A stretch of 64,000 nt of DNA from Bacilli bacterium (GCA_024408095.1 JAKSVI010000003.1:2346-66345), one strand, 5' to 3'. Shown: positions 1 through 44,321, counted from the first letter of the stretch. Notes: generated by a model not told the origin, from the letters alone. Numbers and translations are program-made.

Positions 1-911
1 AGCTTAAAAAGAAAGCATTAAGAGATTCCATCAAAGCTAGTAATGCGATTGAAAATATTCACACAACAGAAAAAAGAATAAATCAAATTGCCGCTGGAGA
101 TAACGCTGCTCAAACTCATTCAGAAGAAGAAATTATAGGCTATAGAAACGTTTTGAATGAGATTCATAGCTTAAATGAACGCATTAAATTTGACGAAATT
201 ACTATTTTAGATTTACATAATCAATTGCTTAAAGAAGCTGATGTAGCAGGGAGGGGACATTATAAAACTGAAGCTAACGTTATTAGCGAAAAGAGAAACG
301 GTAAGAGTTATATAGTTTTTGTTCCAACTAGACCTGATGAAGTTGAGGAATCAATGAATCAAGCATTGCTTGCTTATCAAGAAGCGATTCATGATCCAGA
401 AATTAATCCATTGCTTTTAATCCCATGTTTTATTTTAGATTTTTTGTGTATTCACCCATTTGATGACGGAAATGGCAGAATGTCTAGATTATTAACTTTA
501 TTGCTTCTATATAAAAGTGGATTTGATATTGGGAGATACATTTCAATTGAAAAGGTAATTAATGATACAAAAGATGATTATTATGATGCCTTATATAAAT
601 CTTCAATTAATTGGCACGAAAATAACAACGACTATTCTCATTTCATTTTATATATGATTAGAGTCATTTATCGTTGTTATAAATTATTAGATGAAAATGT
701 TTTTGGAATGATAGATAAAAAGCTTAATAAAAGTGAAAGAATCGAATATCTTTTATTAAATACGTTTGTTCCACTTAGTAAACAACAAATAATGGAACAA
801 TTACCGGATGTTAGCGAAAATCTTGTAGAAACAATTTTATCAAAGCTTATTTCAGAAGGAAAAATTATTAAAATAGGTAGTTATAAAGATGCAATGTATT
901 ATCGAAAATAA
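1..911 (+). CDS. Fic/DOC family protein, 5' end outside window
   Basis: The frame of ORF 153..911 stays open back to nt 3 (LKKKALRDSIKASNAIENIHTTEKR...), so the TTG at 153 is not the real start. It has the canonical Fic motif HPFDDGNGRMSRLL (HxFx[D/E]GNGRxxR). The N-terminal SNAIEN fits the S/TxxxE[G/N] autoinhibitory helix motif. The C-terminus looks like a wHTH. Confidence 0.85.
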   Translation, partial: LKKKALRDSIKASNAIENIHTTEKRINQIAAGDNAAQTHSEEEIIGYRNVLNEIHSLNERIKFDEITILDLHNQLLKEADVAGRGHYKTEANVISEKRNGKSYIVFVPTRPDEVEESMNQALLAYQEAIHDPEINPLLLIPCFILDFLCIHPFDDGNGRMSRLLTLLLLYKSGFDIGRYISIEKVINDTKDDYYDALYKSSINWHENNNDYSHFILYMIRVIYRCYKLLDENVFGMIDKKLNKSERIEYLLLNTFVPLSKQQIMEQLPDVSENLVETILSKLISEGKIIKIGSYKDAMYYRK

Positions 912-992
912 TCTAACTATAGAGGATAATTGTTATGGAAATCGAGATTTTTGCAATATAGTATTTATATAATAAGGTGATGGGTAAATAAA

Positions 993-1616
993 ATGCTTCC
1001 TGAAGAAATTGAATCAATAAGAAAAGAATTGTTTACAGAAACTGATAAAAACGAAATTGTAAAAAAACTAATTAATATAAACCAAAAGATAATACAAAAT
1101 TATTTTCTAAAAATTTTTAGTGGAAAAGAACTTGTTTGTAAGGTTTATTTAAATTGGATTGAATCTTATTTTGATAATAAATATTATCATGACATTGTTG
1201 TTGGGAGAAATAGACCAGCCTGTGATTGTAATCCAATTCAGGAAACATGCGGTAATCTTTATGTTTCCTTAAGAGGCCCTCTATATCGTCATAGGGTTGA
1301 TATTACCTTAGGAAAAAAAGATAATTTCTATTCAATTCTTTTAAAAAGAGTATCATTAGAACCTTCTAAGCCATTAAAACTTGAACAATGTGCACTTGCA
1401 AGGATTTTAGGCAAATATAATACAAATGTTTTGCATTTTGAACTTTGCAAAAAATCATCGGTTACTAGTGAAAGCGAAGAAAGAATAGGAATAATTTTAC
1501 AAGATAAACCAAATAACAATAATGATTATAAATTAGCAGAGCGTTGGTCTAAATATGTCCTGGAACACAATAGGTCAGTAAGAGTAGAGCATTTAGATAA
1601 TATATTGACAAAATAA
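993..1616 (+). CDS. hypothetical protein (207 aa), no recognisable domain
   Basis: Long ORF with AAGGTGA about 12 nt upstream of the ATG. It has a Cys cluster (ACDCNPIQETC). I recognise no family motif. Confidence 0.6.
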   Translation: MLPEEIESIRKELFTETDKNEIVKKLININQKIIQNYFLKIFSGKELVCKVYLNWIESYFDNKYYHDIVVGRNRPACDCNPIQETCGNLYVSLRGPLYRHRVDITLGKKDNFYSILLKRVSLEPSKPLKLEQCALARILGKYNTNVLHFELCKKSSVTSESEERIGIILQDKPNNNNDYKLAERWSKYVLEHNRSVRVEHLDNILTK

Positions 1617-1640
1617 AAGTTACCCCCTACATAATAAAGT

Positions 1641-1772
1641 AACCATAAAGAGTGTGGCGAGAGACAAGCTCCATGACCCACCAGCAACCTGTTAATGTAC
1701 TTACAAGGTGCTAAAACTTGAATGATGGGAAATATTTAGTAGATATGCCCATCATTGATGGGCTTTTGTTTA
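1641..1772 (+). promoter_or_regulatory. candidate S-box (SAM-I clan)-like riboswitch with intrinsic terminator expression platform
   Basis: AAAGAG junction at 1647-52. P2 pairs GUGG 1654-57 with CCAC 1678-81; it encloses GAG 1661-63/CUC 1669-71 and an AUGA (1673-76) k-turn-like bulge. GCAACC 1684-89 and GGUGCUAA 1707-14 flank a P3 hairpin. The P2 loop CAAG 1665-68 is complementary to CUUG 1717-20 (pseudoknot). The 3' P1 strand AUGAUGGG 1722-29 can pair with CCAU 1643-46 or with CCCAUCAU 1748-55 (antiterminator). A terminator follows. There is no canonical P4 between GGUGCUAA and P1. Confidence 0.6.
1747..1772 (+). terminator. intrinsic terminator (riboswitch expression platform)
   Basis: GCCCATC-ATT-GATGGGC stem-loop followed by TTTTGTTT. 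Confidence 0.7.
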
Positions 1773-1807
1773 TATCTTATGGTTGTGTTCAAAAGGAGAT
1801 AAATAAA

Positions 1808-2152
1808 ATGAAACAAATTCCTCTGGTCTACAAATCTAAAGATGATTTGAAAGCAGTTATTACAATATGTAAAAAACTAAATTATAAGATTATGCATTGT
1901 TTAGATGATATTGATTCAATAAAAGAACATATTGTAGCAATAGTATTAGATACAGAATATAAAGAAGTATTTCAATCAAATGTTACATGTATGGCTTGTT
2001 GGTGTTCTTCTAGCAAAGAACCTAGAAAACCTTTGTATGCCGACCAATTTGTTGAAAATTATGAAAAATTATTAATTGAAAAAGATGATAAATTCTACAA
2101 CAAGATGATACGAAGAAATTTCAAACTATATAAGAAAAGTATGAAAATATAA
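1808..2152 (+). CDS. hypothetical protein (114 aa, Cys-rich CMACWCSS segment)
   Basis: ATG at 1808 lies 9 nt after AAAGGAG. The listed TTG start at 1718 sits inside the riboswitch/terminator and is unlikely to be used. No family recognised. Confidence 0.6.
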   Translation: MKQIPLVYKSKDDLKAVITICKKLNYKIMHCLDDIDSIKEHIVAIVLDTEYKEVFQSNVTCMACWCSSSKEPRKPLYADQFVENYEKLLIEKDDKFYNKMIRRNFKLYKKSMKI

Positions 2153-2235
2153 CAAAATGTACTTGCACAAGTATATAAACAATATGAATGCATATCACGA
2201 TATTTTACTTTTATAATAATAACGAGGATTAAAAA

Positions 2236-3177
2236 ATGACCAAAAAAAATTTTCTTATAAACCCACTTAAATACAAAACAAAAAATGAGTTCATGATGTT
2301 TTTGAAAAAATGTGATCTAAATTATATTAGTTTAGAAATTAAACATATTGAAAAACTAAAAGATGAATATTTTCTTTTATATTTACAATATGAAGCAAGA
2401 GTTGTATCTGAAATCATAATGCCTCTTACAAATAAATATAATAAAGATAAAGAAAATTGTAATAAAAGTGAATTAAAAGAAATGGTTAACAAAACCATTA
2501 AATTTGGTTTTGAATTAAAAACAATTTTAGAATTAAAAGAAAAAGAAACATTTGAAATTGTTGATAATAAAAATAATCAAGAGAGCTTTGATAAAAAGAC
2601 ATTAATGAGACAAGCTTCAAAAACCTATAATCTATTAAATAATGCATTTAGTGATTTTTCTAAAAGTTCTTTTAATTGTGTTGATCAACTTTTGAGAAGA
2701 TTAATTAATGTACCAGTAACATATTATCAAAATTTATTGGGAATAACTAACACAGGTGATAAGACAATTGATGAGTATTTATTAAAAGAAGAAAAGCAGT
2801 TTGTTCCAGATGTTTTAGTTGGCAAATCTGAAGATATGAAGACTCATGAAAGTGGAAAGTGCTGGGCAAATTCTTATTCATTATATAGCTCTACATTTTT
2901 AGAAACATTAAAACTAATTAACGAAGCTTATTATGCTCCAGAAGTTGACCATTGTGCTTTACGCGCAAAACGATATGCACAATTAATTAGAGATTTAAGA
3001 AGTGAGGATTATATTAGTGTTTCCAAAATTCAAAAGAAATATTCAATAAGCAATAAAGTTTCTGAATCAAGAATGAATGTATTAATAAATCTTGGCTTGG
3101 TTTCAAAAACACGTGACAAATCCAGGTATAAAGTTAACAAGAAAAAATTGGAGAATCTTTTTCATGGGAATTGTTAG
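2236..3177 (+). CDS. hypothetical protein with C-terminal FtsK-gamma-like winged helix
   Basis: GAGGA RBS. The C-terminal DYISVSKIQKKYSISNKVSESRMNVLINLGLVSK resembles the FtsK gamma domain pattern (sis.lQrr..iGynRAarl.d.LE..GiVs). The N-terminal ~250 aa are unrecognised. Confidence 0.55.
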   Translation: MTKKNFLINPLKYKTKNEFMMFLKKCDLNYISLEIKHIEKLKDEYFLLYLQYEARVVSEIIMPLTNKYNKDKENCNKSELKEMVNKTIKFGFELKTILELKEKETFEIVDNKNNQESFDKKTLMRQASKTYNLLNNAFSDFSKSSFNCVDQLLRRLINVPVTYYQNLLGITNTGDKTIDEYLLKEEKQFVPDVLVGKSEDMKTHESGKCWANSYSLYSSTFLETLKLINEAYYAPEVDHCALRAKRYAQLIRDLRSEDYISVSKIQKKYSISNKVSESRMNVLINLGLVSKTRDKSRYKVNKKKLENLFHGNC

Positions 3178-3604
3178 GCATTTTACTTTAGAAAATATTA
3201 ATTTATGTAAGAAACAAGATCCAATAGTGTTATTTTATTCTTCAACTGGTGCAATGGGGCCAAGTGGACTTATATTGGTAATGCTAGAAAATGAAGATAT
3301 ATATGTTGCTAATGCTTGTAGATATAAAGAAAAAGGATATAAAGAAATAGTTGATTCTTTATTTAAAGAATTCCCCCTTCTTAATTGTATCTCTATGCCA
3401 TTAGTGAAAGGTAAAATAAAGATTCCTTCTTCTCATGAATATATTTATCTTGGCTATGGTAATGGGGCAATTATTAATAAAGGCATTATTAACAAATATA
3501 AGATTAAAGATTTTAGAAGCTTCTTTGGTTTTATAAATAAAATTGCAAAAACAGATGTAGAAAAAGTAGCATATGCCCAAATAGAATTAATTGAAGGTTT
3601 ATAA
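3164..3604 (+). CDS. hypothetical protein (146 aa)
   Basis: In-frame ATG at 3164 is preceded by GGAG and overlaps the upstream stop by 14 nt (coupled). The listed 3092 start would overlap the upstream gene by 86 nt. No motif recognised. Confidence 0.55.
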   Translation: MGIVRHFTLENINLCKKQDPIVLFYSSTGAMGPSGLILVMLENEDIYVANACRYKEKGYKEIVDSLFKEFPLLNCISMPLVKGKIKIPSSHEYIYLGYGNGAIINKGIINKYKIKDFRSFFGFINKIAKTDVEKVAYAQIELIEGL

Positions 3605-3637
3605 TTTAAAAATATTATTTAAATAGAGAGGATCATT

Positions 3638-4843
3638 ATGGCTACGAATCAAGAAAAATTCAGACGTGAATTATTAATAACATTAGAATATCTAGTTTTA
3701 TTTACGGATGAAAAACATCCTGCTATGGCATCTAAAATTTGTGAATATGCTTATAAACAATATGGGATTAAGTATCATCAAAAGCCACAACCAGGAGATG
3801 AAATAAGAAGAGATAGAGTTCAGGCTTGTCTTGTTTATTTATATAATGAATCAATTAATGGAAATAAAGCTTTAAATATCATTATTGAAAAAACAGATAA
3901 AGGAAAATTTTATGTTGAAAGCAAATATTTTAATGATGAGCAAATTGTTCAAATTGGAAGAGCAATTAAAAATGACAAATATACTGCTGATGATAAATAC
4001 TTGGTTGAATCATTATTAGATTTAACAACAAATATTTATAATAGAGAAAAAATATTTAATGAGATAAGCAGTTTTTCAATCCGATCAAATAAATATAAAG
4101 AAGAAAAAATTTTAAAAACATTAAAACAAATAAGCAAAGATAAAAAAATTGTTGAAGTTATTATTGAAGAAATTTTCATAAATAAAAAAGGCAATAAACA
4201 ATGTAGAAAAGTGGCAGAAAAATGCCTTATATATTGTTTTAAAGAATGGAATAACGTTTTGTTTGTTATAATGGTTCCTTTAGCGAAATCGGGTTTGATC
4301 GTATTACCTGTAGACAAAGTTAAAATATCTTCTTATTACGATGATTTTGATGAAAAAAGAGATGTTGATGCATTGTTTAAACAAAACTCTAATGCCAATA
4401 CAACGAGATACAATTCTATTGATGAATATTTGCACAGCTGTGTTGGTGTTAAGGATGGTGGCTTCATTACTAATGTAGCATTTTGGTACCTCTCTTCCGA
4501 CAAAAGAAAAATTGAAAGCAGTTTTTTAAGATATTTCGACAAAAATATTGATTCAATTGAGTGCAAATCGTTTTCAATCAATAGAAAAGAAAGCAAAATA
4601 ATGCCTATTGATAAAACGAAAGGCGGCACTTGTGTAGTGAATGTTTTAGCTAATCCTATTTCTATTTCTAATTGGATTAAGAGTTCTGAAGAAGTCTCTA
4701 AAGCAATTCATGTAGTAGGACCTGATATCATTAACGTAGATTTAGCTTATTATTTTTATCACAGGGCAAAGAAATACAAAGATTTTATTCCTGATATTGA
4801 AGTTGAATTTATAGAAAAAGACCCTTTTAAATATCCTGAATAA
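3638..4843 (+). CDS. putative HTH + WYL-like domain transcriptional regulator
   Basis: GAGAGGA RBS. The N-terminus LLITLEYLVLFTDEKHPAMASKICEYAYKQYGI...IRRDRVQACLVYL matches the wHTH layout of YafY/PafBC/BrxR/CapW-type regulators. The central segment CRKVAEKCLIYCFKEWNNVLFVIMVPLAKSGLIVLPVDKV resembles a WYL beta-barrel. Assigned by pattern only. Confidence 0.5.
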   Translation: MATNQEKFRRELLITLEYLVLFTDEKHPAMASKICEYAYKQYGIKYHQKPQPGDEIRRDRVQACLVYLYNESINGNKALNIIIEKTDKGKFYVESKYFNDEQIVQIGRAIKNDKYTADDKYLVESLLDLTTNIYNREKIFNEISSFSIRSNKYKEEKILKTLKQISKDKKIVEVIIEEIFINKKGNKQCRKVAEKCLIYCFKEWNNVLFVIMVPLAKSGLIVLPVDKVKISSYYDDFDEKRDVDALFKQNSNANTTRYNSIDEYLHSCVGVKDGGFITNVAFWYLSSDKRKIESSFLRYFDKNIDSIECKSFSINRKESKIMPIDKTKGGTCVVNVLANPISISNWIKSSEEVSKAIHVVGPDIINVDLAYYFYHRAKKYKDFIPDIEVEFIEKDPFKYPE

Positions 4844-5027
4844 AATACAAATGTGGAAGTATTTCTTAATTATTTTTTTATATAACAACAAATATAATAA
4901 GATAATTTAATCAAATTAATTATGAAATTTTAGATTAATTTTAAAAGATGATCAAAATATCGTAGATGTTGACAAGGATTTCAACTTAGAAAGATGCTTA
5001 GATGAACTAATAATATAACAAAGACCT

Positions 5028-5046
5028 TTATGGAATATTTCCATAA
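5028..5046. promoter_or_regulatory. perfect 19-bp palindrome, candidate operator just upstream of the ARH gene RBS
   Basis: TTATGGAA-TAT-TTCCATAA, 20 nt upstream of the ATG at 5066 and downstream of the WYL-like regulator gene. Confidence 0.3.
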
Positions 5047-5065
5047 GAGTACAGAAAGGAGTATT

Positions 5066-5914
5066 ATGCTTGGCGCGATAATTGGAGATATGGTTGGTTC
5101 GGTTTATGAATTTAACTCTATCAAAACTAAAAAATTTAATATCTTTAATATAAACAATAGAATGACGGATGATTCTATGCTTACTTTAGCAGTAGCAGAA
5201 GTTTTATCTAAATATTATCCGATTGATTATACGAAAGAAAATTTAGAAAAAATAAAAAAAGATTTAATCAAAGAATTTGTCGAAACAGTTAAAAAAGATC
5301 CTGGACGAGGTTATGGCGGATTCTTTTATGATTGGTGCAAATATAACAATAATGGCTATAAGCCATACAATTCATATGGAAATGGTTCTGCTATGAGAAT
5401 ATCTCCTGTTGGATGGATTGCAAATAGCGAAGAAGAAGTAAAAAAATTGTCAAAGGCTGTTACTGAAATTACTCATAATCATCAAGAAGGTATTAAAGGT
5501 GCAGAAGCTGTGGCAATGTGCATTTATCTTGCTAGAACAGGGAAAGACAAAGAGTATATAAAACATTATGTTAAAAATAATTATTATCCTGAAATAGATA
5601 AACTAGATTTTGATGAACTTGTAAAAACATATACTTTTAGTGTGACTTGTCAAAAAAGTGTTCCTCAAGCAATTTATTGTTTCTTAATTTCAAATAGTAT
5701 GGAAGATGCTATTAGAAACTGTATTGCTATTGGCGGTGATTGTGACACAACCGGTGCGATGGCAGGTTCAATTGCAGAGGCTTATTACCAAAGAGATGAA
5801 TTATCAGACTTTGAAAAGAAATTTATATATCTTCAAATTGATTCAGGATATATAAATCGAATAAAAAAGTTTTATAATATGCTTAATAACAAGAAACTAA
5901 TTGATGTTAGATAG
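5066..5914 (+). CDS. ADP-ribosylglycohydrolase family protein
   Basis: ATG at 5066 follows AAAGGAG. Family hallmarks: MLGAIIGDMVGSVYEF, TDDSMLTLAVAE, GNGSAMRISPVG, GGDCDTTGAMAGSIAEAYY. Confidence 0.85.
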   Translation: MLGAIIGDMVGSVYEFNSIKTKKFNIFNINNRMTDDSMLTLAVAEVLSKYYPIDYTKENLEKIKKDLIKEFVETVKKDPGRGYGGFFYDWCKYNNNGYKPYNSYGNGSAMRISPVGWIANSEEEVKKLSKAVTEITHNHQEGIKGAEAVAMCIYLARTGKDKEYIKHYVKNNYYPEIDKLDFDELVKTYTFSVTCQKSVPQAIYCFLISNSMEDAIRNCIAIGGDCDTTGAMAGSIAEAYYQRDELSDFEKKFIYLQIDSGYINRIKKFYNMLNNKKLIDVR

Positions 5915-5956
5915 TCAGAAATGGAACAAAATAGTAATAGTTAAAAGGGTAAAATT

Positions 5957-6751
5957 ATGAAAAATAAATATGAATATGTAGTTGGTGAATCAAATGGCAG
6001 TAATGTTTCAATAGATATATTAAAATATCCTAGCTTTTTAGTTACTGGTTCAACCGGTAGTGGAAAGTCTGTTTTTATAGATTCTCTTCTTGCTAAATTA
6101 TTAAACAAAAATAATAACGAGCTTCTTAATTTAGCATTTATTGATACAAAACAAGTCGAATTTTGTATTTTCAAAAACAGCAAATATCTTTATAAGGATT
6201 TAAATAAAGGCTGTTCTGGCATCGCAAATAATAAACAAGATGCGTTGGCTTTAATTGATTCATTAGTTAATGAAGCTAAACTTAGAAAGGAAATGTTTGA
6301 GACTTATAAGGTTCAAAATTTTGATGAGTTTAATCGCCAAGCAGGAAAAGCCTTAGATTTATTAAGCAATCATAAGATGCCTTTGATTTTACTAATAGTG
6401 GATGATTATGCTGATCTACATTATAACGATAACGAAAATAATATAAGTAAAAAAATGGAAGAACTTTCATCGATTTATAAAGATACTGGAATTGTTGTAA
6501 TAGTTTCTTCTCAACGTCCTAATAAAAATATATTTAATAAATCATTAATTGATTCATTTAGTACACATATTTGTTTTGCATTAACATTAAATAGTGATTC
6601 TAAATTTGTATTAGGTAATAATGATGCTACTAAATTAAACGGTGTCGGTAAAGGAATTATATATAATAGGAAAACAAATACTCAAATTCCTTTTCAATCG
6701 CCTTATATTAGTAAAAATGAATTAAAAGCAATAATTATTAGAAGAAATTAA
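5957..6751 (+). CDS. FtsK/SpoIIIE-family ATPase, motor domain only (264 aa)
   Basis: Walker A FLVTGSTGSGKSVF and Walker B PLILLIVDDYADL, then VIVSSQRP and ICFAL as in FtsK alpha/beta domains. There is no TM segment and no gamma domain. Confidence 0.8.
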   Translation: MKNKYEYVVGESNGSNVSIDILKYPSFLVTGSTGSGKSVFIDSLLAKLLNKNNNELLNLAFIDTKQVEFCIFKNSKYLYKDLNKGCSGIANNKQDALALIDSLVNEAKLRKEMFETYKVQNFDEFNRQAGKALDLLSNHKMPLILLIVDDYADLHYNDNENNISKKMEELSSIYKDTGIVVIVSSQRPNKNIFNKSLIDSFSTHICFALTLNSDSKFVLGNNDATKLNGVGKGIIYNRKTNTQIPFQSPYISKNELKAIIIRRN

Positions 6752-6772
6752 CAAGGTGAGCATATACTTAAG

Positions 6773-7143
6773 AAAAATGAAGAAGAGAAACCTAAACAAC
6801 AAGCTTTAGAGAATCCATATCAAAATGGAATAAGCAAAGTTTGGAAGCATTTAATGCACTTGATAAGACTGAGCCTCTTGGTGAGATAAATAATCAACAT
6901 GATACAGTTTATGTGAGCAATGGCTGAACCGGCTACACGTTTGATAACAATAAATATATAAGTCAATACTTAAAAGGCCCTCCGACTAATTTAACTATTA
7001 TAGTTAAGGATACAAGAAATCAAACTGGTTAAGGAACAATATCAATTATTCTTTATGGCGGCTTAATGAACTATGGTTTAGATTTGTTTAAGGACCCTGT
7101 AGATAATAAAGAAAATATTATTTCCATTTGCAAAATAACGTAG
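6773..7143 (+). pseudogene. decayed gene remnant (frameshift plus two in-frame stops)
   Basis: Frame from 6844 reads EAFNALDKTEPLGEINNQHDTVYVSNG*TGYTFDNNKYISQYLKGPPTNLTIIVKDTRNQTG*GTISIILYGGLMNYGLDLFKDPVDNKENIISICKIT. TGA is at 6925 and TAA at 7030. The upstream part (KNEEEKPKQQALENPYQNGISKV) is in another frame. No start codon or RBS. Confidence 0.5.
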
Positions 7144-7288
7144 ATTTGTAATGATTTTCACTACAAAAAAGCACCTTCTATACTAATTTTCAAACTTATT
7201 TTATAAATAAGATTCAAAAATTATTTAATTACATAATTGTTGTTTATAAAATTCAATGATAATATCATTTCTAGAAAGGAATTAAATT

Positions 7289-7939
7289 ATGACAAAATTA
7301 TTTGAAAAAATTAACAAATGGGTAATTGTTGGTATTGCTGGCGTATATGGCCTATTAAGGCTAATCGGTGGTATTATTTTAGTTTCCAAAAACACCGTTG
7401 AAAATCACGCTGGAACAGCCTCACTCTTTAGTGGACTTGTTATTGCTGCAATTGCTGGTCTCCTTATTTATTTCTTAATTAGGGACAAAAAGAAAGAAGC
7501 AACCATCGTTGGCATTGTACTTGCTGGTTCATTAGTTGTCTCCGCTCTTACAACTGCTGTTAGTGAATGGAGTATGGCCTATTCTCTTGACAGACAATTA
7601 AAAGAATTTGGCGAATGGATGTCATCTGAAAACAAGAAAGAGTTGTCAACTGCTATTAGTTATTATGTCGTTTATGGGATTGCAACCTTAACAATGTTTG
7701 TTGGCGCTGTCGCTTATATGACACCAAAACTAACACAAAAAGTACCACAAAAAGTTGTTAGCCTTGTTGCTTTAATTTCTTTTGCTGCTGCTTTTGTTCT
7801 CTTCTTAGTTGCTACCATCATTTATGGAAATTGCGAAATGCTTAAACATGCAACCGAAAGTGTCGCAAACACAATACTCAATATTGCTTCAATGGTTGAA
7901 GCTGTCTTGTTACTTGTCTTAATGAATAAAGATTTTTAA
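7289..7939 (+). CDS. multi-pass membrane protein, unknown function
   Basis: AAGGAA RBS. Several hydrophobic helices (VIVGIAGVYGLL, LFSGLVIAAIAGLLIYFLI, and others). Confidence 0.7.
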   Translation: MTKLFEKINKWVIVGIAGVYGLLRLIGGIILVSKNTVENHAGTASLFSGLVIAAIAGLLIYFLIRDKKKEATIVGIVLAGSLVVSALTTAVSEWSMAYSLDRQLKEFGEWMSSENKKELSTAISYYVVYGIATLTMFVGAVAYMTPKLTQKVPQKVVSLVALISFAAAFVLFLVATIIYGNCEMLKHATESVANTILNIASMVEAVLLLVLMNKDF

Positions 7940-7955
7940 TTCTTTATTATATTAG

Positions 7956-7990
7956 AAAAAGAACTTGGGACTCCCGAGTTCTTTTCTTAT
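7956..7990. terminator. bidirectional intrinsic terminator between convergent genes
   Basis: AAAAAGAACTTGGGA/TCCCGAGTTCTTTTC hairpin (one G-U pair) flanked by an A-run and a T-run. Confidence 0.7.
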
Positions 7991-8877
7991 TTTGAAGCTA
8001 TTAGTTTATTTCCAATTTCAACACAATGTTGATAGTCTTTATCAATTGGAAGCTTACATTTTTTAGGATAGCCTGATATTTCAAAAATTCCTCTTGGTCC
8101 AGTGGTATTATTTTGATCCATATTAAGAGCATAAAGCATTGATAAACTAGCTTTTCTTGGAGTATGAAATGCCACTTTCATAAACCCTTTTGCAATTGCA
8201 TGAAACGCCTTCTTTCTATATCCTTTTTGAATAAGGGGAGAATATGTTCCTCCTGGATGAGATAAGTCAAAAACTATATTAGAATTGGCATATTTTTCTT
8301 CAAAATAGCAAAACATATTGTTAATTGCTCTTTTACTTCGAGCATAAATTTTCATCGGTTTATATCTATTTTCCATAAAGAAATCTTTATAGTCAATTTT
8401 ATTATATCTAGTGGTTAATGAGGAGACATAAAGCATATGTACCTTGTGCTTTAATCTTTGAAAATAAGGTAAAAGTAAATTGGAAAGATATAGCGTTCCA
8501 AGATAATTAGTTCCCATGACAATTTCAAATTCATTTTCAGTTTTAGAATATGGGAGTCTAAATACACCTGCGTTATTTACAAAGTGATCAACATCATATT
8601 TTTGGATTTCTTTTGCTGCATTTTCTATTGATGAGAATGAGGCTAAATCTAATTTAATAAATCCTATATTACATTTAGGAAATTCTTGTTGTAGAGATGT
8701 AATTGCATCTTTAGCTTTAGTTTCGTTTCTACATAAAAGAAAAATATTACTTCCTAGTTTTGCACAATGTCGCGCAAGTTCAAAACCAATACCAGAGTTT
8801 CCGCCGGTTATGAAAACATTCTTATTTTCAAAATTACTTTTATTGATATTTTTGCTTATCCATTTTTCTATAGACAT
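7987..8877 (-). CDS. short-chain dehydrogenase/reductase (SDR) family oxidoreductase
   Basis: Rossmann motif VFITGGNSGIGFELA, NNAG motif, and catalytic YARSK (YxxxK). Confidence 0.85.
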   Translation of the reverse strand: MSIEKWISKNINKSNFENKNVFITGGNSGIGFELARHCAKLGSNIFLLCRNETKAKDAITSLQQEFPKCNIGFIKLDLASFSSIENAAKEIQKYDVDHFVNNAGVFRLPYSKTENEFEIVMGTNYLGTLYLSNLLLPYFQRLKHKVHMLYVSSLTTRYNKIDYKDFFMENRYKPMKIYARSKRAINNMFCYFEEKYANSNIVFDLSHPGGTYSPLIQKGYRKKAFHAIAKGFMKVAFHTPRKASLSMLYALNMDQNNTTGPRGIFEISGYPKKCKLPIDKDYQHCVEIGNKLIASK

Positions 8878-8989
8878 GTTGATATAATATCATTATTTCG
8901 TATATTACTATTAAGAATTCGCAAAAAGATGTCTATAATATCTTAAGTTTCTAAAATTGACTATACTAATTAAAGCAATTGTGAAACAT

Positions 8990-9036
8990 AATGAGACTTA
9001 ACAAATTTGTCTCAATATACTAGATTTGCAGAGGGT
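8990..9036 (+). promoter_or_regulatory. conserved 5'-leader motif, copy A (unknown function)
   Basis: AATGAGAC-N11-CAAATTTGTCTCAATA-N5-GATTTGCAGAG-GGTTT. A near-identical core lies upstream of the gene at 39412. TGAGAC/GTCTCA can form a stem. Confidence 0.35.
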
Positions 9037-9049
9037 TTCTAATTAAATT

Positions 9050-9928
9050 ATGAAGAAAATTATTAATTCGAGATGTTTATCTTTACTTACAGTTCTAATT
9101 ATTTACGTTATATGTTTTGCTGTAGGATTTTATGGATCTATATTTATTATTAATAATGATTTATTAAGATTTTTTGTCGCTGACATAATAGCTACAGTTG
9201 TGTGTTTTATTTTCTCACTTTTATTTAAAAATACTTCTGTTTATGATCCTTATTGGAGTGTTACCCCTATAGTTATTTCTTTGTATTTCTTTATTGCTTA
9301 TAAAGCATATTTTTCTATTCCTAATATTATTTTATTTGCTGTTTTAGCAATATGGGGAATTAGATTAACAGTTAATTGGATAACAACATTCCCAAATTTA
9401 ACGCATGAAGATTATAGATATAGTGATTATCGACATAAATTATCTAAAGGTAAATTTTTTATTGTAAATTTCTTTGGACTTCATATGATTCCAACATTAA
9501 TTGTTTATGTATGTTTAGTGCCTCTTTTATATCTATTCATGAGAGGTAACAACTCATATTTGACATTAATTGGTGCAGTTATTATGCTTATCGGCATTTT
9601 ACTTGAACTCTTTGCAGATAGAGATATGCATGTGTTCTTAAGAACAACAAAAGAAAGAGTAACTTGCAAACAAGGTTTATGGAATTATTCAAGACATCCT
9701 AATTACTTAGGAGAAAATTTAATTTGGATTGGTATATTTTTATCGTTTATTGTTGTCTATTCTAGTGTGTGGTACTTATCTTTAGGATTTATATTGATGA
9801 TATTATTGTTTGAATTTATATCCATTCCATTGGCTGAAAATCATCATAAGAGCCGCAGAAGCGATTATGTTGATTATATAAAAACTACTTCTAGAATGTT
9901 GATTTTGCCACATAGGAAAAGTCGTTAG
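9050..9928 (+). CDS. DUF1295 / steroid 5-alpha-reductase-like membrane protein
   Basis: Polytopic membrane protein. The C-terminal WNYSRHPNYLGENLIWIGIFL is typical of the DUF1295/ICMT-like family. Confidence 0.75.
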   Translation: MKKIINSRCLSLLTVLIIYVICFAVGFYGSIFIINNDLLRFFVADIIATVVCFIFSLLFKNTSVYDPYWSVTPIVISLYFFIAYKAYFSIPNIILFAVLAIWGIRLTVNWITTFPNLTHEDYRYSDYRHKLSKGKFFIVNFFGLHMIPTLIVYVCLVPLLYLFMRGNNSYLTLIGAVIMLIGILLELFADRDMHVFLRTTKERVTCKQGLWNYSRHPNYLGENLIWIGIFLSFIVVYSSVWYLSLGFILMILLFEFISIPLAENHHKSRRSDYVDYIKTTSRMLILPHRKSR

Positions 9929-36803: not shown

Positions 36804-39299
36804 ATGAGACATAAAATTAGCACTTCCATTTTGATATCAACATTACTGATTGGACTGAGTTCTGCAGGGATTTTGTTAAGCAATAAGCCAATTCCCAATA
36901 CATATGTAGAAACAGAAGCAACAAATCCTGAAGTAATGAAAATCAATGGACCTGTTTATGCTCCTTATAGCGGAAATTACTACGATTCAATTACTGCAAC
37001 AAGCGGTAAAGCTTTAAGAAATCAATTAACAGATTTGATTGATGGCCATACTGTAATTGGATATAAAAATTTAGAAACTGTTTATTATGATAGCGATTCA
37101 AGACCAGACGGAACTGTTTGGGATGTGTATGGCGATATTGACTATGATTTTTCTGATACCGGCCAATATTCAAAAGTTGGAGATTCATGGAATAAAGAAC
37201 ATGGAATTCCACAATCTTGGTTCGGCGAAGCGTCACCAATGAAGAGTGATGCATATCATGTTTATCCAACTGATGGATACATAAACAATTGGCGTGGAAA
37301 TATGCCACTTGGAGAAGTTAATACTGTCAGTAAAAGTTATACATTTAAAGGCACCTATGTTGAAGGCGTTTCGAAGTTGGGAACTAGCAAAACTTCTGGT
37401 ATATCTGGAACTGTTTTTGAACCTGCAGATTGCTATAAAGGAGATTTTGCTCGCTCATATTTCTATTTTGTAACTAGATACGCAAGCCAATGTGCTAGTG
37501 GAGCATGTAATAAATCATCTGAAGCAAATAAAGTTCTTACTAAAGATGACACTTATTTTCATTTAACGAAAGCTGCTGCAGATTTATTTTATAAATGGCA
37601 TAAACAAGATCCTGTAAGCCAAAAAGAAGTCAATAGATGTAATGGCATTCAACAACATCAAAAAAATAGAAATCCTTACATCGATCACCCTGAATATGTT
37701 GATGCTATTTGGGGAGATACACCTGTCCAAAAAGTTGATCCAACTGCTTTTGATTTTGAGAAAGATGAAGTTACTTTAATAAAAGATGAAACATTCAAAT
37801 TAGATGTAATTCCAACTCCAAGTAATGCAAATACCTCTGCAAATTGGGCATCTTTAGACACAAATATAGCAAGAGTCAATGATGGTTTGGTTACCGCTGT
37901 TGGTATTGGAACAACATATATAACTGCAACTAGTAAAGTAGTTCCAACAGTTAGTGCCTCATGCAAAATAACTGTTAAAGAGTTATCATCAATTTCTTTG
38001 TCTGGAACCGCAACTCAAACTGACTATTTTGAAGGAGATATTTTTAATCCTGATGGTATAACTGTTACTGCAAAATATACAGATGATAGTACATCAATTA
38101 TTGATAACTCACAATGTACTTGGGTTGATGGAAACACAGGCATTCAATATCTTTCTGTGGGAACAACCTTTGTTATTTGTAACTACCAAAATAAACAAGA
38201 ATCTTATCGCGGCATTACGGTTTCAGAGTCTCAGGGTGGATCTATAGAAATTGATATTAATTCTATTGAAGGACTATCAACTAAATATGCTTGGTATGAT
38301 TGGTCTAGTAATAACATCGAAGGTTCAATATATGCCTACCTTAGTAATAAAAATACAATTCAGATGAATAGCAGTAAGACCGCAAATATAATTTTTAATT
38401 CAAACGCTTTGCCTGGAAGAATAACAAAAGTAACAGTATATTCTGCAACAGGCACTCCAAAAGTTGAGGTTCGAACAAATAACGAGGCATTTGGAAAATG
38501 CAAAAATCCAACTACAGGAACTAGTGGCGGGCAAAAGAATGTTTCAACAACAGGAGTGACTTGGGAATTTACAACTCTTGATAAATATTTCGCAATTGTC
38601 GCTAGCGATGGTGTTTGCTATTTCTCAAAGTTTGTTATTGAATATGGAAACAAATCTCCAGACCCAGAAGTTCATGTCACCAGTGTTAATGTTTCTCCTT
38701 CTTATTTGTCTTTAAAAATCAATGATTCATATCAACTCACAACTGTTGTATTGCCAAGCAACGCAACTGATAAATCTTTAAGATATGTAAGCACTGATGA
38801 TAAGATTGTTTCTGTTTCAAATTCTGGTGAAATTCAAGCAATTAATGCAGGAACTGCAACGATTTCGGCCATTTCTAATGATGTTCCTACTATTTTTGGC
38901 ACATGCACAGTTGTTGTGGAAAATGACTATATTGAATTAGATGCAAACTCAAAATCGTTATTAGTCGGAGAGACAACAACTATCAATGTTGTCAGGGCAA
39001 GTAGAGAAGTTTCTTGGTCTTGTAATGATGACTCAATTATTAGAATAGCTGGTAGTAATACTGGTTGCCTTATTGAAGCCTTAAAACCTGGTAATGTTAC
39101 TCTAACTGCAACAGTTGGGGGGCAATCAGCATCTGTGAATGTTATAGTGAAAGAAGTTCCAGTTCCACCTCCAACTCCACCCGCTCCCAAAAAAGGGTGT
39201 GGTGGAGAGATTGCATCAACAAGTGCGATAATTGCTTTACTATCTATTTTTGGTGTAGGCATAATTTTATTAAGAAAAAAACAAAAACATGAGAAATAA
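36804..39299 (+). CDS. membrane-anchored endonuclease I with Big_2 repeats and GCGG-type C-terminal anchor
   Basis: N-terminal signal/anchor. Endonuclease I motifs WNKEHGIPQSW, DAYHVYP and NRNPYIDHP. At least three Big_2-like segments (e.g. IARVNDGLVTAVGIGTTYITA). The C-terminus is GCGGEIASTS + TM + RKKQKHEK. Confidence 0.85.
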   Translation: MRHKISTSILISTLLIGLSSAGILLSNKPIPNTYVETEATNPEVMKINGPVYAPYSGNYYDSITATSGKALRNQLTDLIDGHTVIGYKNLETVYYDSDSRPDGTVWDVYGDIDYDFSDTGQYSKVGDSWNKEHGIPQSWFGEASPMKSDAYHVYPTDGYINNWRGNMPLGEVNTVSKSYTFKGTYVEGVSKLGTSKTSGISGTVFEPADCYKGDFARSYFYFVTRYASQCASGACNKSSEANKVLTKDDTYFHLTKAAADLFYKWHKQDPVSQKEVNRCNGIQQHQKNRNPYIDHPEYVDAIWGDTPVQKVDPTAFDFEKDEVTLIKDETFKLDVIPTPSNANTSANWASLDTNIARVNDGLVTAVGIGTTYITATSKVVPTVSASCKITVKELSSISLSGTATQTDYFEGDIFNPDGITVTAKYTDDSTSIIDNSQCTWVDGNTGIQYLSVGTTFVICNYQNKQESYRGITVSESQGGSIEIDINSIEGLSTKYAWYDWSSNNIEGSIYAYLSNKNTIQMNSSKTANIIFNSNALPGRITKVTVYSATGTPKVEVRTNNEAFGKCKNPTTGTSGGQKNVSTTGVTWEFTTLDKYFAIVASDGVCYFSKFVIEYGNKSPDPEVHVTSVNVSPSYLSLKINDSYQLTTVVLPSNATDKSLRYVSTDDKIVSVSNSGEIQAINAGTATISAISNDVPTIFGTCTVVVENDYIELDANSKSLLVGETTTINVVRASREVSWSCNDDSIIRIAGSNTGCLIEALKPGNVTLTATVGGQSASVNVIVKEVPVPPPTPPAPKKGCGGEIASTSAIIALLSIFGVGIILLRKKQKHEK
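39195..39296 (+). other. 34-aa C-terminal tripartite signal (GCGG box, TM helix, basic tail), copy 1
   Basis: GCGGEIASTSAIIALLSIFGVGIILLRKKQKHEK. Same length and layout as the tail of the S8 protease. Confidence 0.6.
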
Positions 39300-39320
39300 A
39301 GTTAGGATTTATACCTAAAA

Positions 39321-39385
39321 AATGAGATTAAAACTATTTATATGTATTACTCAATTTGTCTCAATAAAGGGGATTTGCAGAGTTT
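39321..39385 (+). promoter_or_regulatory. conserved 5'-leader motif, copy B (unknown function)
   Basis: AATGAGAT-N23-TCAATTTGTCTCAATA-N5-GATTTGCAGAG-TTTTT. About 30 of 37 core positions match copy A at 9000-9036. Confidence 0.35.
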
Positions 39386-39411
39386 TTAACTAAAATTGTA
39401 GGAAATAATAT

Positions 39412-39825
39412 ATGTTTAAAATTTTAAGATGGTATCAAGAAACATGGAAATCTAATATTATTGCTTTTTTGATTGTTTCAGCAATTGGAATTGGTGGTTT
39501 TTGTCTGGTTTATTATTTGCAAAATCAAACTGTTGTTGCTGGAGCTAATGCTAGCGCAGTTGCTTTTGCTTTAACTGGAGCTACTTGTGCGTTCAGCATA
39601 CTTAACCGATTTGGAGCTTTTGATACCTTGGCTTATGGCGGTACTATGTTCATTAGAATGTTCTCATATAAACAAGAAAAAAAATATGATGATCTTGTTC
39701 AATATAAGAAAGTAAAATACGCGAAAAGATGTAAAAATTATTACTATGTCACATATGGCTTTATTGCGATTGTGTTTTTAGTGATATTAATTATTTTTGA
39801 GGTTAAATATCGCTCTATAATTTGA
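39412..39825 (+). CDS. small membrane protein (DUF3899-like)
   Basis: Three hydrophobic helices. The NRFGAFDTLAYGGTMFIRMF segment resembles DUF3899. Weak assignment. Confidence 0.55.
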   Translation: MFKILRWYQETWKSNIIAFLIVSAIGIGGFCLVYYLQNQTVVAGANASAVAFALTGATCAFSILNRFGAFDTLAYGGTMFIRMFSYKQEKKYDDLVQYKKVKYAKRCKNYYYVTYGFIAIVFLVILIIFEVKYRSII

Positions 39826-39850
39826 TTTTTTTATATTTATATAAGCAACC

Positions 39851-39880
39851 AAACTCATGAAAAAAAATGAGTTTTTTTCT
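39851..39880 (+). terminator. intrinsic terminator
   Basis: AAACTCAT-GAAAAAAA-ATGAGTTT followed by TTTTCTTT. Confidence 0.65.
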
Positions 39881-39958
39881 TTATTTGTGTGTGCAACGTG
39901 TTATATATTATATACAATATACACTCTTGCGGGCGTATATGAAAAAGGAGGTTAAGAT

Positions 39959-42900
39959 ATGAAACCTATCAAATTATTCGCAGCAGCTTTAGCCGCTGGA
40001 TTATTAGCAATCCCAGCTGGAATTACTGCTCAACCATGCGAAGTAAAGGCTAACGATGCTCGTATTATCGTTGAAGTCGACAAAGCACTTGATGGTTTAT
40101 CTAATGAAGGCATCATTAATTCTCAAGATTCAGTCATTAGTAACATTAAGAGATTTGTTTCTTCTAACGTTAAACTCGAAACACGTTATTCTGTGCTTGC
40201 AAATGCTTTCTTGCTTTCAGTTAACAGCGAGGATATTGATTTAATTAAACAAGTCCCAGGTGTTAAAAGTGTTACAGTTGACAAACTACACTTCACTGAA
40301 ACTTATGATGGAGCCAAAAACGTCACGATTTATAGAGATGGCGGATCCAGCAAATATTCAGAAAGCGACAACATTTCAGGAATTACAATGAATGCACCTG
40401 AATTATCCAAAACAAGAGGTGGCGAAGGCGTCGCTATCGCTATTCTTGATAACGAATTCATGCTCAAGAAAAATTCCGCTGGTGTCATTAACAAAGAATA
40501 TACACACGAGACTTTTAACGATTTAAAGGTTGGTATAAAAACAAAATTTACACAAGATAGCATTGCTACAATCGTGAAAAATGCTGGTGATTCATTCCAT
40601 GGAAAACCAGGTTCTGCAAAAAATGAAACCACATATTTCAATAAAAAGGTTCCATTCTATTACGATTATGGTGGAGATACAACTTCTCCAAATGCTCAAG
40701 GTATGCCAGATTTCGATACTTACAGTGATGTTGCTGCCCATGGTAGCCACGTTGCAAGTATTGCCGCAGGTAATGGTGATACCTACAAAGGACTTGCTCC
40801 AAATGCACAATTAATTTGTATGAAAGTCTTTACAGTTTATGAACCAACTGAAGCTTTTAAAGCTATTGGTGCTGCTGGAGGTAGTGGAGCTTATGATTCA
40901 GCTATATTCAATGCCCTTGAAGATTGCATTACATTAGGTGTTGATGCAATTAACATGTCCTTAGGTAGTGATTTAGATGACTTTGATCAAGATTCCCTTA
41001 CATTAAGAACATTAAGGAGCATGCAAGATAAAGGAATTATCGCATGTATTGCTGCTGGTAACTCAGGTAAATCAGCCTATTCATTCACCGGTGCTTATGG
41101 TAACTGGACTGGTGATATGGTTGAAACTGGTATTATGTCTAGTTATGCTAACGTTCCAACAACAATGACTGTTGCAGCTGGTGTTCCTCTTGCAACATAC
41201 TTTGAAACCGCTGTTAACGTAAACAACGTTTCTATTCAATATGAAGACCAAGTTAAAAATAGAGACGATGACGATACAACCTTCCGTGAAGAAGACCAAA
41301 AATATATTTGGGATTTAACTCAAGATGGAACGATTACTGATTTCGAATTTGTTAAAGTTCCAGGATATGGCGAAGCCAAAGATTATGCCGCAATAGATGT
41401 TAGAGGCAAAATTGCTGTTGTTGATCGTGGATCTATTGATTTTGAAACCAAAGTCAAGAACGCTTATGGAAAAGGTGCAATTGCAGTCTTTATTATTGAT
41501 AACGACCCAACCGCTACCGAATTTTCATTTAGATGTTCATTCGGTACTTACGTTCCAGAAATTCCAGTTGCGCTAACTCTTTATAAGAATAGACCAACAT
41601 GGATTGATGCTGATCATGGTACATTAACTGTTATTAAAGACCAAATTCTTGATAACACAAATCCATACACCGCAGCTACATTCTCTACTGATGGTGCAAC
41701 ATACAATTATGATTTAAAACCAGATATTACAACTCCTGGTGAAGGTATTAAAGGTGCTGTTCCACCATACGATAAGAACAAATATAAAGATGTTTCTAAG
41801 TATAGAACACAATACGAATGGTACAGTGGTACATCAATGGCATGTCCTAACTACTGTGGTGTTGTGGCCTTAATGTTAGGTGAACATACAAATGAAGATC
41901 CTACTTCTTATAGAGCATTTAAAGATTCTCTCAACATGAGAGTTCAATCTACCGCTACTCCAATGGTGGAAAATAATGCTCATAATGTTGAAGTATATAC
42001 ATCACCTCGTATTCAAGGTGCAGGTATGGCAAACGTTGGCAACGCTATGACTTCTCAAGTTTATTTAGAAGGATTAACACAAACTGGCGAGCCAACTGCA
42101 AGAGGTAAAGTTTGCTTATACAATAATAGTGATATTGCTAACGGAAACTTAAAAGTTTCAGTTAGAGGACATAACGAAACAGATAAAGATGTTAAATATA
42201 ACGCTAAATTAGTTATTCAATATCCTGATGTTGTTGAAACAAACGATATCATTCAATCCGATTACAACAACATGGGTGAATTAAATACTTATGTTGAATT
42301 AGTCGGAAGTGCTAACGTTCCAGCTAAATGGATTATTGATGGAGCAGAAGTTGTTAACGAAGACTTCTGTGATGATCCTCTTGATGGCAAATACATCAAA
42401 GGTGTCGATGTTTCATTACTCAAAGTAAATGATGCATATAAAGTCAAAACCATCGATGAAAAATATTATTTAGGTGGCACATTAGAAGCAAATCAAAAAG
42501 CATTCTATTTCACTGGTGCAACATTACCAGATGGCTCAATTGATAGAGCAAATTGCTGGCAACATGTACCATTTAAACAATATCAATCAGTTAAAGATCA
42601 AATTCTTGCTGAAACAACTCCAACAACTGTCACATTCAAAAGTGATTCCTCATTAATTATCGGTAATGAAAACGACATTACTATTCCATATGAAATCACT
42701 GCTGAACAAAAGAAAAAAATCAACGATTTCTATAATTATGGATGTGCTATTGAAGGATATCTAGTTTTAGAACCAATTGATGAGAATGAAGGTGTCGTAT
42801 TAAACGTTCCATTCCTCGGATTCTATGGTGACTATTCAAAAGCCCCAGCAGTTGAACCATTCTTCTTTGAAAAAGAAGTTGGAAAAATTTATCCATCTGA

Positions 42901-44302: not shown

Positions 44303-44321
44303 TGAAAGGAGAAAATAGATT

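Follow-up and report, generated by a model that had tools for sequence, protein, structure and literature searches.

A divergent WYL-type regulator beside an ADP-ribosylglycohydrolase in accessory DNA of a Bacilli bacterium: a possible version of ARG-centred conflict systems

Do the genes at the start of a 64,000-nucleotide stretch from a Bacilli bacterium (GCA_024408095.1, JAKSVI010000003.1:2346-66345; this whole stretch is called the window here) form a single undescribed defence or mobile system? A sequence-only reading had proposed so for positions 1-7150, seen as an island of mostly orphan genes mixed with a Fic protein, a riboswitch, a WYL-type regulator, an ADP-ribosylglycohydrolase (ARH) and an FtsK-like motor. 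Comparison with relatives takes this set of seven genes apart. With middling confidence, we rather see a mosaic accessory stretch of the defence-island type, belonging to uncultured low-GC gut Bacilli and composed of at least four separable units, whose functional core would be the pair made of the WYL regulator and the ARH. The units would be a SoFic-like Fic gene with a gene for a protein of 207 amino acids (aa), both neighbours only; a SAM-I riboswitch (SAM: S-adenosylmethionine), switched OFF when SAM is high, and the 114-aa gene that is its client; the WYL transcription factor and the ARH, framing a variable cargo slot that is empty or eroded in the window; and a phage-type stand-alone FtsK-like ATPase. 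The eight open reading frames (ORFs) listed for 1-7150 are real, all on the + strand and at about the limits first given to them, and the assignments to Fic, SAM-I riboswitch, ARH and FtsK-like ATPase hold (PF02661, RF00162, PF03747 and PF01580 respectively).

The regulator is a 401-aa protein (3638-4843, + strand), entered as hypothetical in the metagenome-assembled genome of a “Bacilli bacterium”. It had been labelled “HTH-WYL”, and its predicted fold matches DriD/PafBC, BrxR and CapW, so that its nature as a transcription regulator of the winged helix-turn-helix (wHTH)-WYL-WCX type is supported at the fold level. By sequence its family is divergent: no Pfam model, that of WYL included, matched at E<=0.1, and a PDB profile search gave no match at E<=10. 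The AlphaFold2 (AF2) model, built on five sequences, has a mean predicted local distance difference test score (pLDDT) of 65—mostly 70-90 in the C-terminal two thirds, with low confidence in the N-terminal third—and follows the order H-H-H-E-E (the wHTH), helices, a beta-rich part (171-234) and an alpha/beta part (243-383). With Foldseek against PDB the top 10 structures are all DriD or PafBC (E 8e-6 to 1.3e-3, probability 0.99-1.0), BrxR and CapW rank after them, and the best viral match of the protein is annotated “WYL domain containing protein”. Like these four regulators, the 401-aa protein is predicted to carry an N-terminal wHTH, a beta-rich WYL-like domain and a C-terminal alpha/beta domain, and it sits beside variable defence-type cargo; unlike them, it has no sequence match to any solved member or to Pfam, and its family is longer (401-470 aa vs about 290-330 aa). 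The family thus appears to consist of WYL regulators invisible to current domain models. A search of 5.8 billion protein clusters found two relatives of the 401-aa protein that are close (84% and 79% identity) and two that are distant (31-33%), and a metagenome scan with the regulator alignment added nine more loci; a profile search of genome contigs with the same alignment found no relatives, and one with AddB returned only bacteria of the candidate phyla radiation, at 23-28% identity.

The ARH gene (5057-5914, + strand) matches PF03747 at 2e-38, with 133 bits vs a cut-off of 26, and phrog_6572 at 6.6e-51. Its likely start is the ATG at 5057, after GAAAGGAG. The protein contains the motifs GDMVGSVYE, TDDS and GGDCDTT; the last two are of the metal-site type, and we take them to be ARH catalytic residues. 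It is 57-68% identical to the ARHs found beside distant homologues of the regulator and 41% identical to ARHs of Clostridium botulinum plasmids; around the ARH of plasmid pCLK, the only one of these contexts inspected, a regulator neighbour was not found.

The linkage of the two genes was counted in independent regulator lineages with at least 3 kb of downstream sequence (n=6). An intact ARH follows the regulator in five of the six—the window, the loci L005, L006 and L022, and the L016 group—at a distance of about 35 nt to 6 kb; in the sixth, L021, a remnant of an ARH accompanies a regulator of 30% identity. In the L016 group, i.e. the near-identical human-gut contigs L014, L015, L016 and L019, the regulator is 31% identical to ours and the ARH, about 34 nt further on, is 68% identical; in L022 the regulator is down to 24% and a 63%-identical ARH lies 2.6 kb downstream. 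Regulator and ARH are the only pair persisting at 24-31% regulator identity, and relatives of the 114-, 313- and 146-aa proteins or of the FtsK-like ATPase were not found in these distant loci.

The distant pairs reside in defence islands. The neighbours are a PbeA-like PLD-SNF2 helicase, a D12 methyltransferase and a restriction endonuclease (REase)-like protein in L016, a type III restriction-modification system at the place of this cassette in L015, a Schlafen/AbiO/Nhi-like helicase, a NERD nuclease and an IetA-like ATPase in L021, and GmrSD in L022, where an FtsK_gamma+HAD_SAK_2 phosphatase-type protein also overlaps the ARH start. At about 1000-9600 of the L014, L015, L016 and L019 contigs, the sequences differ in what stands between the regulator gene and that of a small serine recombinase: L016 and L019 share the cassette with the PbeA-like helicase, D12 methyltransferase and REase-like protein, and L014 has truncated remnants and a split recombinase gene in its position. 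This is strain-level swapping of defence cassettes. We also observed that an unplaced family of 204-231 aa, with the motif IVG(T/S)(L/F)T(P/S)P, adjoins regulator homologues in three otherwise different loci (L005, 7330-7956; L008, 1490-2185; L021, 15016-15630). A motif had pointed to the uracil-DNA glycosylase (UDG) superfamily; this idea was dropped, as neither Pfam nor the PDB profiles supported it.

How far does conservation reach around the pair? Against L005 and L006 the conserved block spans window positions 1599-6759, from promoter and riboswitch through the FtsK-like gene. By blastn, L005 shares 1599-4947, 5055-5837 and 5914-6759 (84%, 72% and 73% identity), beginning at the TTGACA promoter element just 5' of the riboswitch and ending 8 nt past the stop codon of the FtsK-like gene; L006 shares 1803-4900 and 5055-5830. 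In these close loci the 114-, 313-, 146- and 401-aa genes are in strict synteny at 78-84% nucleotide identity. The block occupies three different genomic contexts, with both flanks unrelated between loci. On the left of L005, which lies on a 125-kb contig, are Y-family polymerase and YolD genes, a tRNA-Ala(cgc) (7029-7104) placed between them and the gene preceding the block, and that unrelated 208-aa gene itself; on its right are genes for a lipoprotein and an ABC transporter. In L006 the upstream gene is another one, the riboswitch is absent and no FtsK-like gene is visible on the contig; the right flank of the window holds a membrane protein, a short-chain dehydrogenase, DUF1295 and AddBA.

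Between regulator and ARH the loci diverge. The slot contains three genes in L005 and six in L006, the cargo being lipoproteins or, in L006 (6623-7825, - strand), a full-length UG26 defence-associated reverse transcriptase (PADLOC 1.2e-90). The 213-nt gap of the window has no intact cargo gene; at 4935-4991 (+ strand) tblastn detects a 19-aa remnant, 68% identical to the 258-aa product of the first gene after the regulator in L005 (L005_11293-12069; blastn, 4938-4991). Besides, the window has no counterpart of the 52-aa ORF that overlaps the start of the ARH gene in both L005 and L006. Since the slot holds this remnant only and the small ORF is gone, the window copy of the block is, to judge by its sequence, an eroded one. 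A short repeat of the DFYG(K/R)ILG type was noticed in a 70-aa ORF of L005 (12088-12300) and the C-terminus of a 736-aa lipoprotein of L006 (3357-5567), which are 52% identical over 58 aa.

Several features on which the sequence-only reading relied have to be seen in this light. The DNA is indeed accessory and rare, with three members for the 313-aa family and five for the 401-aa family among the 5.8 billion clusters; identical proteins occur only on contigs of apparently the same organism, and the region corresponds neither to core genome nor to a known prophage or integrative and conjugative element (ICE) backbone. By contrast, the first 7 kb do not stand out from the rest as had been thought: their GC content is 0.272 vs a mean of 0.313 (sd 0.024 between 7-kb windows), the next 9 kb are equally low, and same-strand orientation, taken as a mark of the island, is general across most of the window. 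Nor is 1-7150 a unit, as relatives share 1599-6759 only and the Fic and 207-aa genes are outside. Five proteins had been called unplaceable: none of them matches Pfam, NCBIfam, PHROGs or PADLOC, but not all are orphans, the 114-aa protein having relatives in 67 clusters and the 401-aa protein in at least 11 lineages. Of the checks suggested at that time, PADLOC returned single-component matches only (Fic to SoFic; the ATPase to the SspH C-terminus and mad8) and no complete gene set, and AF2 with Foldseek placed the 401-aa protein as a WYL regulator and left the 313-aa protein with a generic wHTH. As an aside, the most deviant tetranucleotide composition of the window and its highest GC (up to 0.37) are found at about 37000-45000, where two ORFs of 1447 and 1067 aa lie.

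What would the regulator and the ARH do together? By analogy with the ARG-centred systems of Iyer et al. (2022), the WYL factor would silence the cassette until it binds a conflict-associated ligand, either single-stranded DNA (ssDNA), as in DriD, CapW and PafBC, or a molecule derived from ADP-ribose. The ARH might then strip ADP-ribose that an ADP-ribosyltransferase (ART) of the invader has put on a host protein or nucleic acid. The analysis itself establishes gene content, domain and fold assignments, the riboswitch, where the conserved block begins and ends, and which genes occur together. Ligand sensing, de-repression and hydrolysis of invader-imposed ADP-ribose, and with them the regulatory logic, are all inferred.

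The second unit begins at the left edge of the block with a promoter-like site (1605-1635, + strand). Its TTGACA (1605-1610) is invariant in an alignment of the window, L005 and a phage riboswitch locus, and TACATAAT at 1628-1635 might be read as the -10 element. The SAM-I (S-box) riboswitch aptamer follows at 1640-1731 (+ strand), with 48.7 bits vs a gathering score of 44.4 for RF00162 (49.8 bits for the L005 homologue); it is the one Rfam element of the whole 64 kb, in which no tRNA gene was found. A six-locus alignment of the aptamer preserves the stems P1, P2 and P3 and shows compensatory changes at 12 of 34 pairs; P4 of the window aptamer, only a few nt long, is almost wholly deleted in the alignment to the RF00162 model. 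The expression platform includes an intrinsic terminator (1747-1773, + strand), made of the hairpin GCCCATCATTGATGGGC (1747-1763) and a T-run; the 5' arm of the hairpin, CCCATCATT, can pair with AATGATGGG, the 3' strand of P1. This hairpin is kept in six loci and forms the sole + strand terminator-like site within 850-7400. From its sequence, the element is of the classical S-box OFF design, predicted to bind SAM and to be off when SAM is high.

The client encodes the 114-aa protein (1808-2152, + strand), 84-96% identical in amino acids across the three close loci. An exhaustive HMMER search of 1.84 billion proteins yields 67 representatives of its family (clusters at 50% identity, E<=1e-3), mostly of 110-130 aa and none in Pfam, with a core motif NVTCMACW in which T, M and W are the best-kept residues; one member (P0045) was seen fused to BspA-type leucine-rich repeats. 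SAM riboswitches are repeatedly found upstream of this uncharacterised small-protein family: directly upstream in L025 (1-532; 45.5 bits, aptamer cut by the contig end) and in L026 (349-864; 43.5 bits, E 1.8e-7), and one gene 5' in L028 (458-1338; 39.3 bits, E 3e-6), the homologues there being 39-44% identical to the window protein. Together with the window and L005 this makes five of the seven contexts, no SAM riboswitch having been found in the other two, L030 and L031. Downstream of riboswitch and 114-family gene, the genes of L025 are unrelated to those of the window, and the family was not found in the distant regulator loci. Because the pair recurs in distant genomes without the other genes of the block, we consider riboswitch and 114-aa gene as a unit of its own.

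Does the riboswitch control more than its first gene? No promoter-like or terminator-like site lies between the 114-aa gene and the 313- and 146-aa genes, so that read-through from the riboswitch probably gates these two as well. A bolder proposal, which we find very hard to credit, is that of a danger sensor: an invader depleting SAM, e.g. by a phage SAM lyase that evades methylation-dependent immunity, would arm a back-up conflict cassette. The read-through this supposes, into the 114-, 313- and 146-aa genes and possibly also those of regulator, ARH and ATPase, seems just as doubtful. If it were true, the S-box would have its first client with a conflict-related rather than metabolic role, namely the 114-aa family, linked to riboswitches in at least five lineages. 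Compared with the S-box regulon of Bacillota, the aptamer is alike in exceeding the Rfam gathering threshold, in its terminator/antiterminator platform and in stems backed by covariation. The differences are that its client is not an enzyme or transporter for methionine, cysteine or SAM but an uncharacterised 110-130-aa family, that non-metabolic accessory genes follow this client, and that P4 is cut to a few nucleotides. As a by-product, the analysis brings to light a family of uncharacterised small proteins controlled by a SAM riboswitch; few riboswitch clients have no known function, and any of them can be tested directly.

A similar riboswitch was met in the Ruminococcus phage NatCom_28274 (L023, PV036439.1). 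This SAM-I element (4006-4129, 59.9 bits) has a terminator and precedes a 98-aa hypothetical gene (4180-4476), the record annotating a coding sequence over the aptamer; at a distance of 2.2 kb, the opposite strand carries a gene for a DNA methyltransferase. The 98-aa protein was considered as a member of the 114-aa family and ruled out, as the family hidden Markov model (HMM) does not match it.

The next two genes are confined to the window, L005 and L006. The 313-aa protein (2236-3177, + strand), whose family has no members beyond these three among the 5.8 billion clusters, would combine a helical N-terminal region with a C-terminal winged helix resembling FtsK-gamma, a relative (P0007) having a precomputed match to PF09397 FtsK_gamma. 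Its AF2 model has a pLDDT of 46 and is confident only at residues 245-310, the winged helix; because it failed outside this part, the Foldseek matches, all to generic wHTH proteins, are uninformative. Weak matches of the 313-aa protein were obtained to MotA and FtsK gamma in PDB profiles (E about 1) and, for the C-terminus, to a PHROG replication initiator (0.016). The gene for the 146-aa protein (3164-3604, + strand) starts within the end of the 313-aa gene, and because of this 14-nt overlap the two are probably translationally coupled. Homologues of the 146-aa protein are limited to L005 (87%) and L006 (71%), and it matched nothing in Pfam, NCBIfam, PHROGs, PADLOC or the PDB profile search. 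PDB profile searches with the 313-, 146- and 114-aa families gave nothing significant, and no similarity was found between these proteins and the unplaced neighbours in distant regulator loci. We note that FtsK-gamma-like winged helices have three kinds of partner here, as they occur at the C-terminal end of the 313-aa protein (window 2236-3177), in the 52-aa ORFs (L005, 12415-12573; L006, 9149-9307) and in the L022 protein (4924-5664). A direct Pfam match exists only for the last, the FtsK_gamma+HAD_SAK_2 protein; the case of the 52-aa ORF comes from reading the sequence.

At the 3' end of the block stands the 264-aa ATPase (5957-6751, + strand), a stand-alone P-loop protein of the FtsK/HerA type (PF01580, 3e-17; phrog_1358, 1.3e-44; PADLOC SspH C-terminus, 1.5e-27, and mad8, 1e-18). 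It has a Walker A GSTGSGKS and a Walker B LLIVDD, and it matches positions 27-200 of the 221-position Pfam model as well as the core segment of the long FtsK and EssC models. It is therefore the motor core only, devoid of the membrane, alpha and gamma domains of FtsK/SpoIIIE, whose full architecture it does not have. The L005 homologue is 60% identical, and outside the block the nearest relatives, at about 30%, are FtsK/SpoIIIE-like phage proteins of 280-340 aa; one relative of this level is chromosomal, beside a single unplaced 247-aa gene between housekeeping genes. The ATPase accompanies the ARH in only two loci. With the phage FtsK-like ATPases (phrog_1358/3551), the SspH C-terminus and mad8 of MADS it shares a RecA-type motor core with intact Walker A and B and the length class (264 aa vs 280-340 aa for the stand-alone ATPases of phage and defence), but the identity is only about 30%, and the PADLOC scan found none of the Ssp and MADS partner genes in the window. 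Further on, three-frame translation reveals an ORF-like stretch of 101 codons (6838-7140, + strand), outside the block shared with L005. The stretch proposed as a remnant at the end of the island is there, with two in-frame stops; as no relatives appear in any fetched locus or in Pfam, a decayed gene is a plausible interpretation only.

Upstream of the block, the Fic gene (1-911, + strand) is 5'-truncated by the window edge, its frame being open from base 3. The protein has an intact motif HPFDDGNGRMSR and matches PF02661 (8e-16), phrog_5978 (1.4e-38) and PADLOC SoFic (3.5e-29, positions 105-350 of 361), with 47.6 bits vs a cut-off of 550 for the NCBIfam SoFic equivalog. SoFic is a single-gene system. 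Homology of the region 1-911 to L005 or L006 was not found, and by this comparison Fic is a neighbour of the block, not a member. No sign was seen of a joint action of AMPylation by Fic and de-ADP-ribosylation. The 207-aa gene (993-1616, + strand) likewise adjoins the block without being part of it, and an unrelated 208-aa gene holds its place in L005; the 207-aa product matches no family of the four HMM libraries, nor did tblastn against phages and plasmids give a match.

The mobile character of the region was sought by several ways. In agreement with the sequence-only reading, no integrase was found in 1-7400, where library scans also detected no relaxase, capsid, terminase or phage structural gene; the left border is outside the window. 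Searches for att-like and terminal inverted repeats gave only AT-rich chance matches, and no downstream repeat of the 3' end of the L005 tRNA-Ala was found. DNA-level searches of phage and plasmid records returned only short matches of ARH, Fic or riboswitch, and scans of 2.9 million viral contigs with the regulator alignment, the ARH, the ATPase, the 114-aa protein and the alignment of its family returned nothing.

Four other explanations compete with the mosaic that we prefer. Six genes (114, 313, 146, WYL regulator, ARH and FtsK-like ATPase) might form one SAM-gated conflict system transcribed from the riboswitch promoter; it would turn ON when SAM falls, e.g. through the SAM lyase of a phage that thereby evades restriction, and the FtsK-gamma-type wHTH protein would target the gamma-less motor to DNA. 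Strict synteny and the 84-96% identity of the 114-aa protein in three loci speak for it, as do the riboswitch terminator being the only one of its strand in 850-7400, the lack of a promoter-like site between 1523 and 2616, the coexistence of a motor without gamma domain and a 313-aa protein with a gamma-like wHTH, and the likeness of the motor to SspH and mad8 in PADLOC. However, L006 keeps the 114-401 genes without riboswitch and without a visible FtsK-like gene, the riboswitch and 114-family unit has wholly different downstream genes elsewhere, the distant regulator-ARH loci have none of the 114-, 313-, 146-aa and FtsK-like genes, promoter-like sites lie upstream of the regulator and ARH genes, and the partners of SspH and mad8 are absent. 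We regard such a system as unlikely, at each of these three steps. The same holds for the view of the block as the backbone, now decayed, of some small mobile element (phage satellite, integrative mobilisable element or piece of a cryptic prophage), and for the roles it would give to the FtsK-like protein (translocase), the 313-aa protein (initiator or excision factor) and the WYL protein (repressor). It would account for the three genomic contexts, for the tRNA-Ala that precedes the left edge of the L005 block by about 850 nt, the 208-aa gene lying between, for the small serine recombinases of L006 and the L016 group, for the phage origin of the nearest FtsK-like relatives, for the weak initiator match of the 313-aa C-terminus and for the remnants at 4935-4991 and 6838-7140. 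It is at odds with the window having no integrase, relaxase, capsid or terminase gene in library scans and no att-like direct or terminal inverted repeats above the AT-rich background, with the tRNA 3' end not being repeated, with the empty result in viral contigs and phage and plasmid collections, and with the failure to find any repeat family pointing to an origin.

The two remaining explanations seem to us more improbable still. In an ssDNA-responsive DNA-damage regulon of the PafBC/DriD type, as opposed to a defence system, the WYL activator would sense ssDNA and induce repair, and the ARH would reverse the ADP-ribosylation of DNA. DriD and PafBC, which give the best fold matches, are damage regulators activated by ssDNA, genes for a Y-family polymerase and YolD adjoin the block in L005, and AddAB lies 3 kb downstream in the window; yet Foldseek cannot separate WYL subtypes, BrxR and CapW matching too, the UmuC/YolD and AddAB adjacencies occur in one locus each, and the UDG-like idea for the 204-231-aa neighbours found no support in PDB profiles. 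In the distant loci, the genes nearby are those of restriction and abortive infection, and a housekeeping regulon should be neither so rare nor so variably placed. At the opposite, there could be no system at all, just unrelated accessory genes and pseudogene debris in a recombination-prone spot, with a largely non-functional copy in the window. This would fit the eroded slot without the FtsK-gamma mini-ORF of L005 and L006, the interrupted ORF at 6838-7140 and the mosaic divergence from L005 (84% at the nucleotide level over 1599-4947, 72-73% over ARH and FtsK-like gene), but it fits poorly with eight intact ORFs bearing conserved catalytic or Walker motifs, with a regulator-ARH adjacency kept down to 24% identity and with the compensatory base changes of the riboswitch.

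The mosaic with a regulator-ARH core also has points against it. The ARG-centred class on which it is modelled is, in the account of Iyer et al., known by computational prediction only. Among the 207-, 114-, 313- and 146-aa proteins there could be an effector or a divergent ADP-ribosyltransferase, and the logic would then be a different one. The window copy has neither a phosphatase or chaperone partner nor the small FtsK-gamma ORF of L005 and L006, and because these are missing it may be partly non-functional. The strict 114-313-146-401 synteny also fits a single operon, the much better conservation of the ARH than of the regulator could reflect separate histories rather than co-function, and the island's left border is beyond the window.

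To which known systems does the locus come close? As in DarTG/DarHTG (with the ARH-type DarG3) and DraT-DraG, a de-ADP-ribosylating enzyme lies in a conflict-type locus, and DarHTG likewise pairs with an NTPase, a helicase. Unlike in DarTG and DraTG, library scans found no DarT (DUF4433), DraT or other ART domain in any ORF of the window, and no ART family in the scanned neighbour proteins of L005, L006, L016, L021 and L022.

The ARG-centred class (Iyer, Burroughs, Anantharaman and Aravind 2022, Viruses 14:1977; PMC9503650), as set out in the part of that paper devoted to it, joins an ARG domain to a WYL or Nudix regulator. About 55% of the systems have a coupled phosphatase (rhodanese-phosphatase, calcineurin-like, HD or HAD), peptide-binding chaperones (vWA, SseB, TY-Chap1-3) are often present, and the description there includes no coupled ADP-ribosyltransferase or sirtuin; the role proposed is the removal of ADP-ribose placed by phage enzymes on host molecules. 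The association of WYL regulator and ARH was already described computationally. The window shares both core features, as its ARH adjoins a one-component regulator of the HTH-WYL type. Library scans gave no match to an ART or sirtuin family for any window ORF, but one of the 207-, 114-, 313- and 146-aa proteins could hide a divergent ART. Modules vary among close relatives, restriction and nuclease genes lie near relatives, and the tightly coupled HAD-type phosphatase of L022—its HAD_SAK_2 protein—matches the coupled-phosphatase feature of the class as published.

Differences also exist. The WYL domain of the window regulator is missed by Pfam; a Pfam scan found no phosphatase in the window, an optional feature in the class as described; and for the chaperone feature there is no Pfam match in the window, the PDB profile search with the 146-aa protein being empty. 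Section 3.8 of Iyer et al., as far as it informs this comparison, does not extend to the FtsK-gamma-type wHTH partners, the stand-alone FtsK-like ATPase and the SAM-riboswitch unit, and the lineages for which it presents the class are actinobacteria, planctomycetes and proteobacteria, whereas ours is low-GC Bacilli. These findings do not establish a system new in kind, and the copy in the window seems eroded. The regulator-ARH pair would nevertheless extend the predicted anti-viral-ADP-ribosylation class to gut Bacillota, and 3638-5914, about 2.3 kb, is a compact candidate for its first experimental test. The closest known systems, as far as the published description goes, are thus the ARG-centred WYL/Nudix systems, of which the window would hold a divergent version with added parts.

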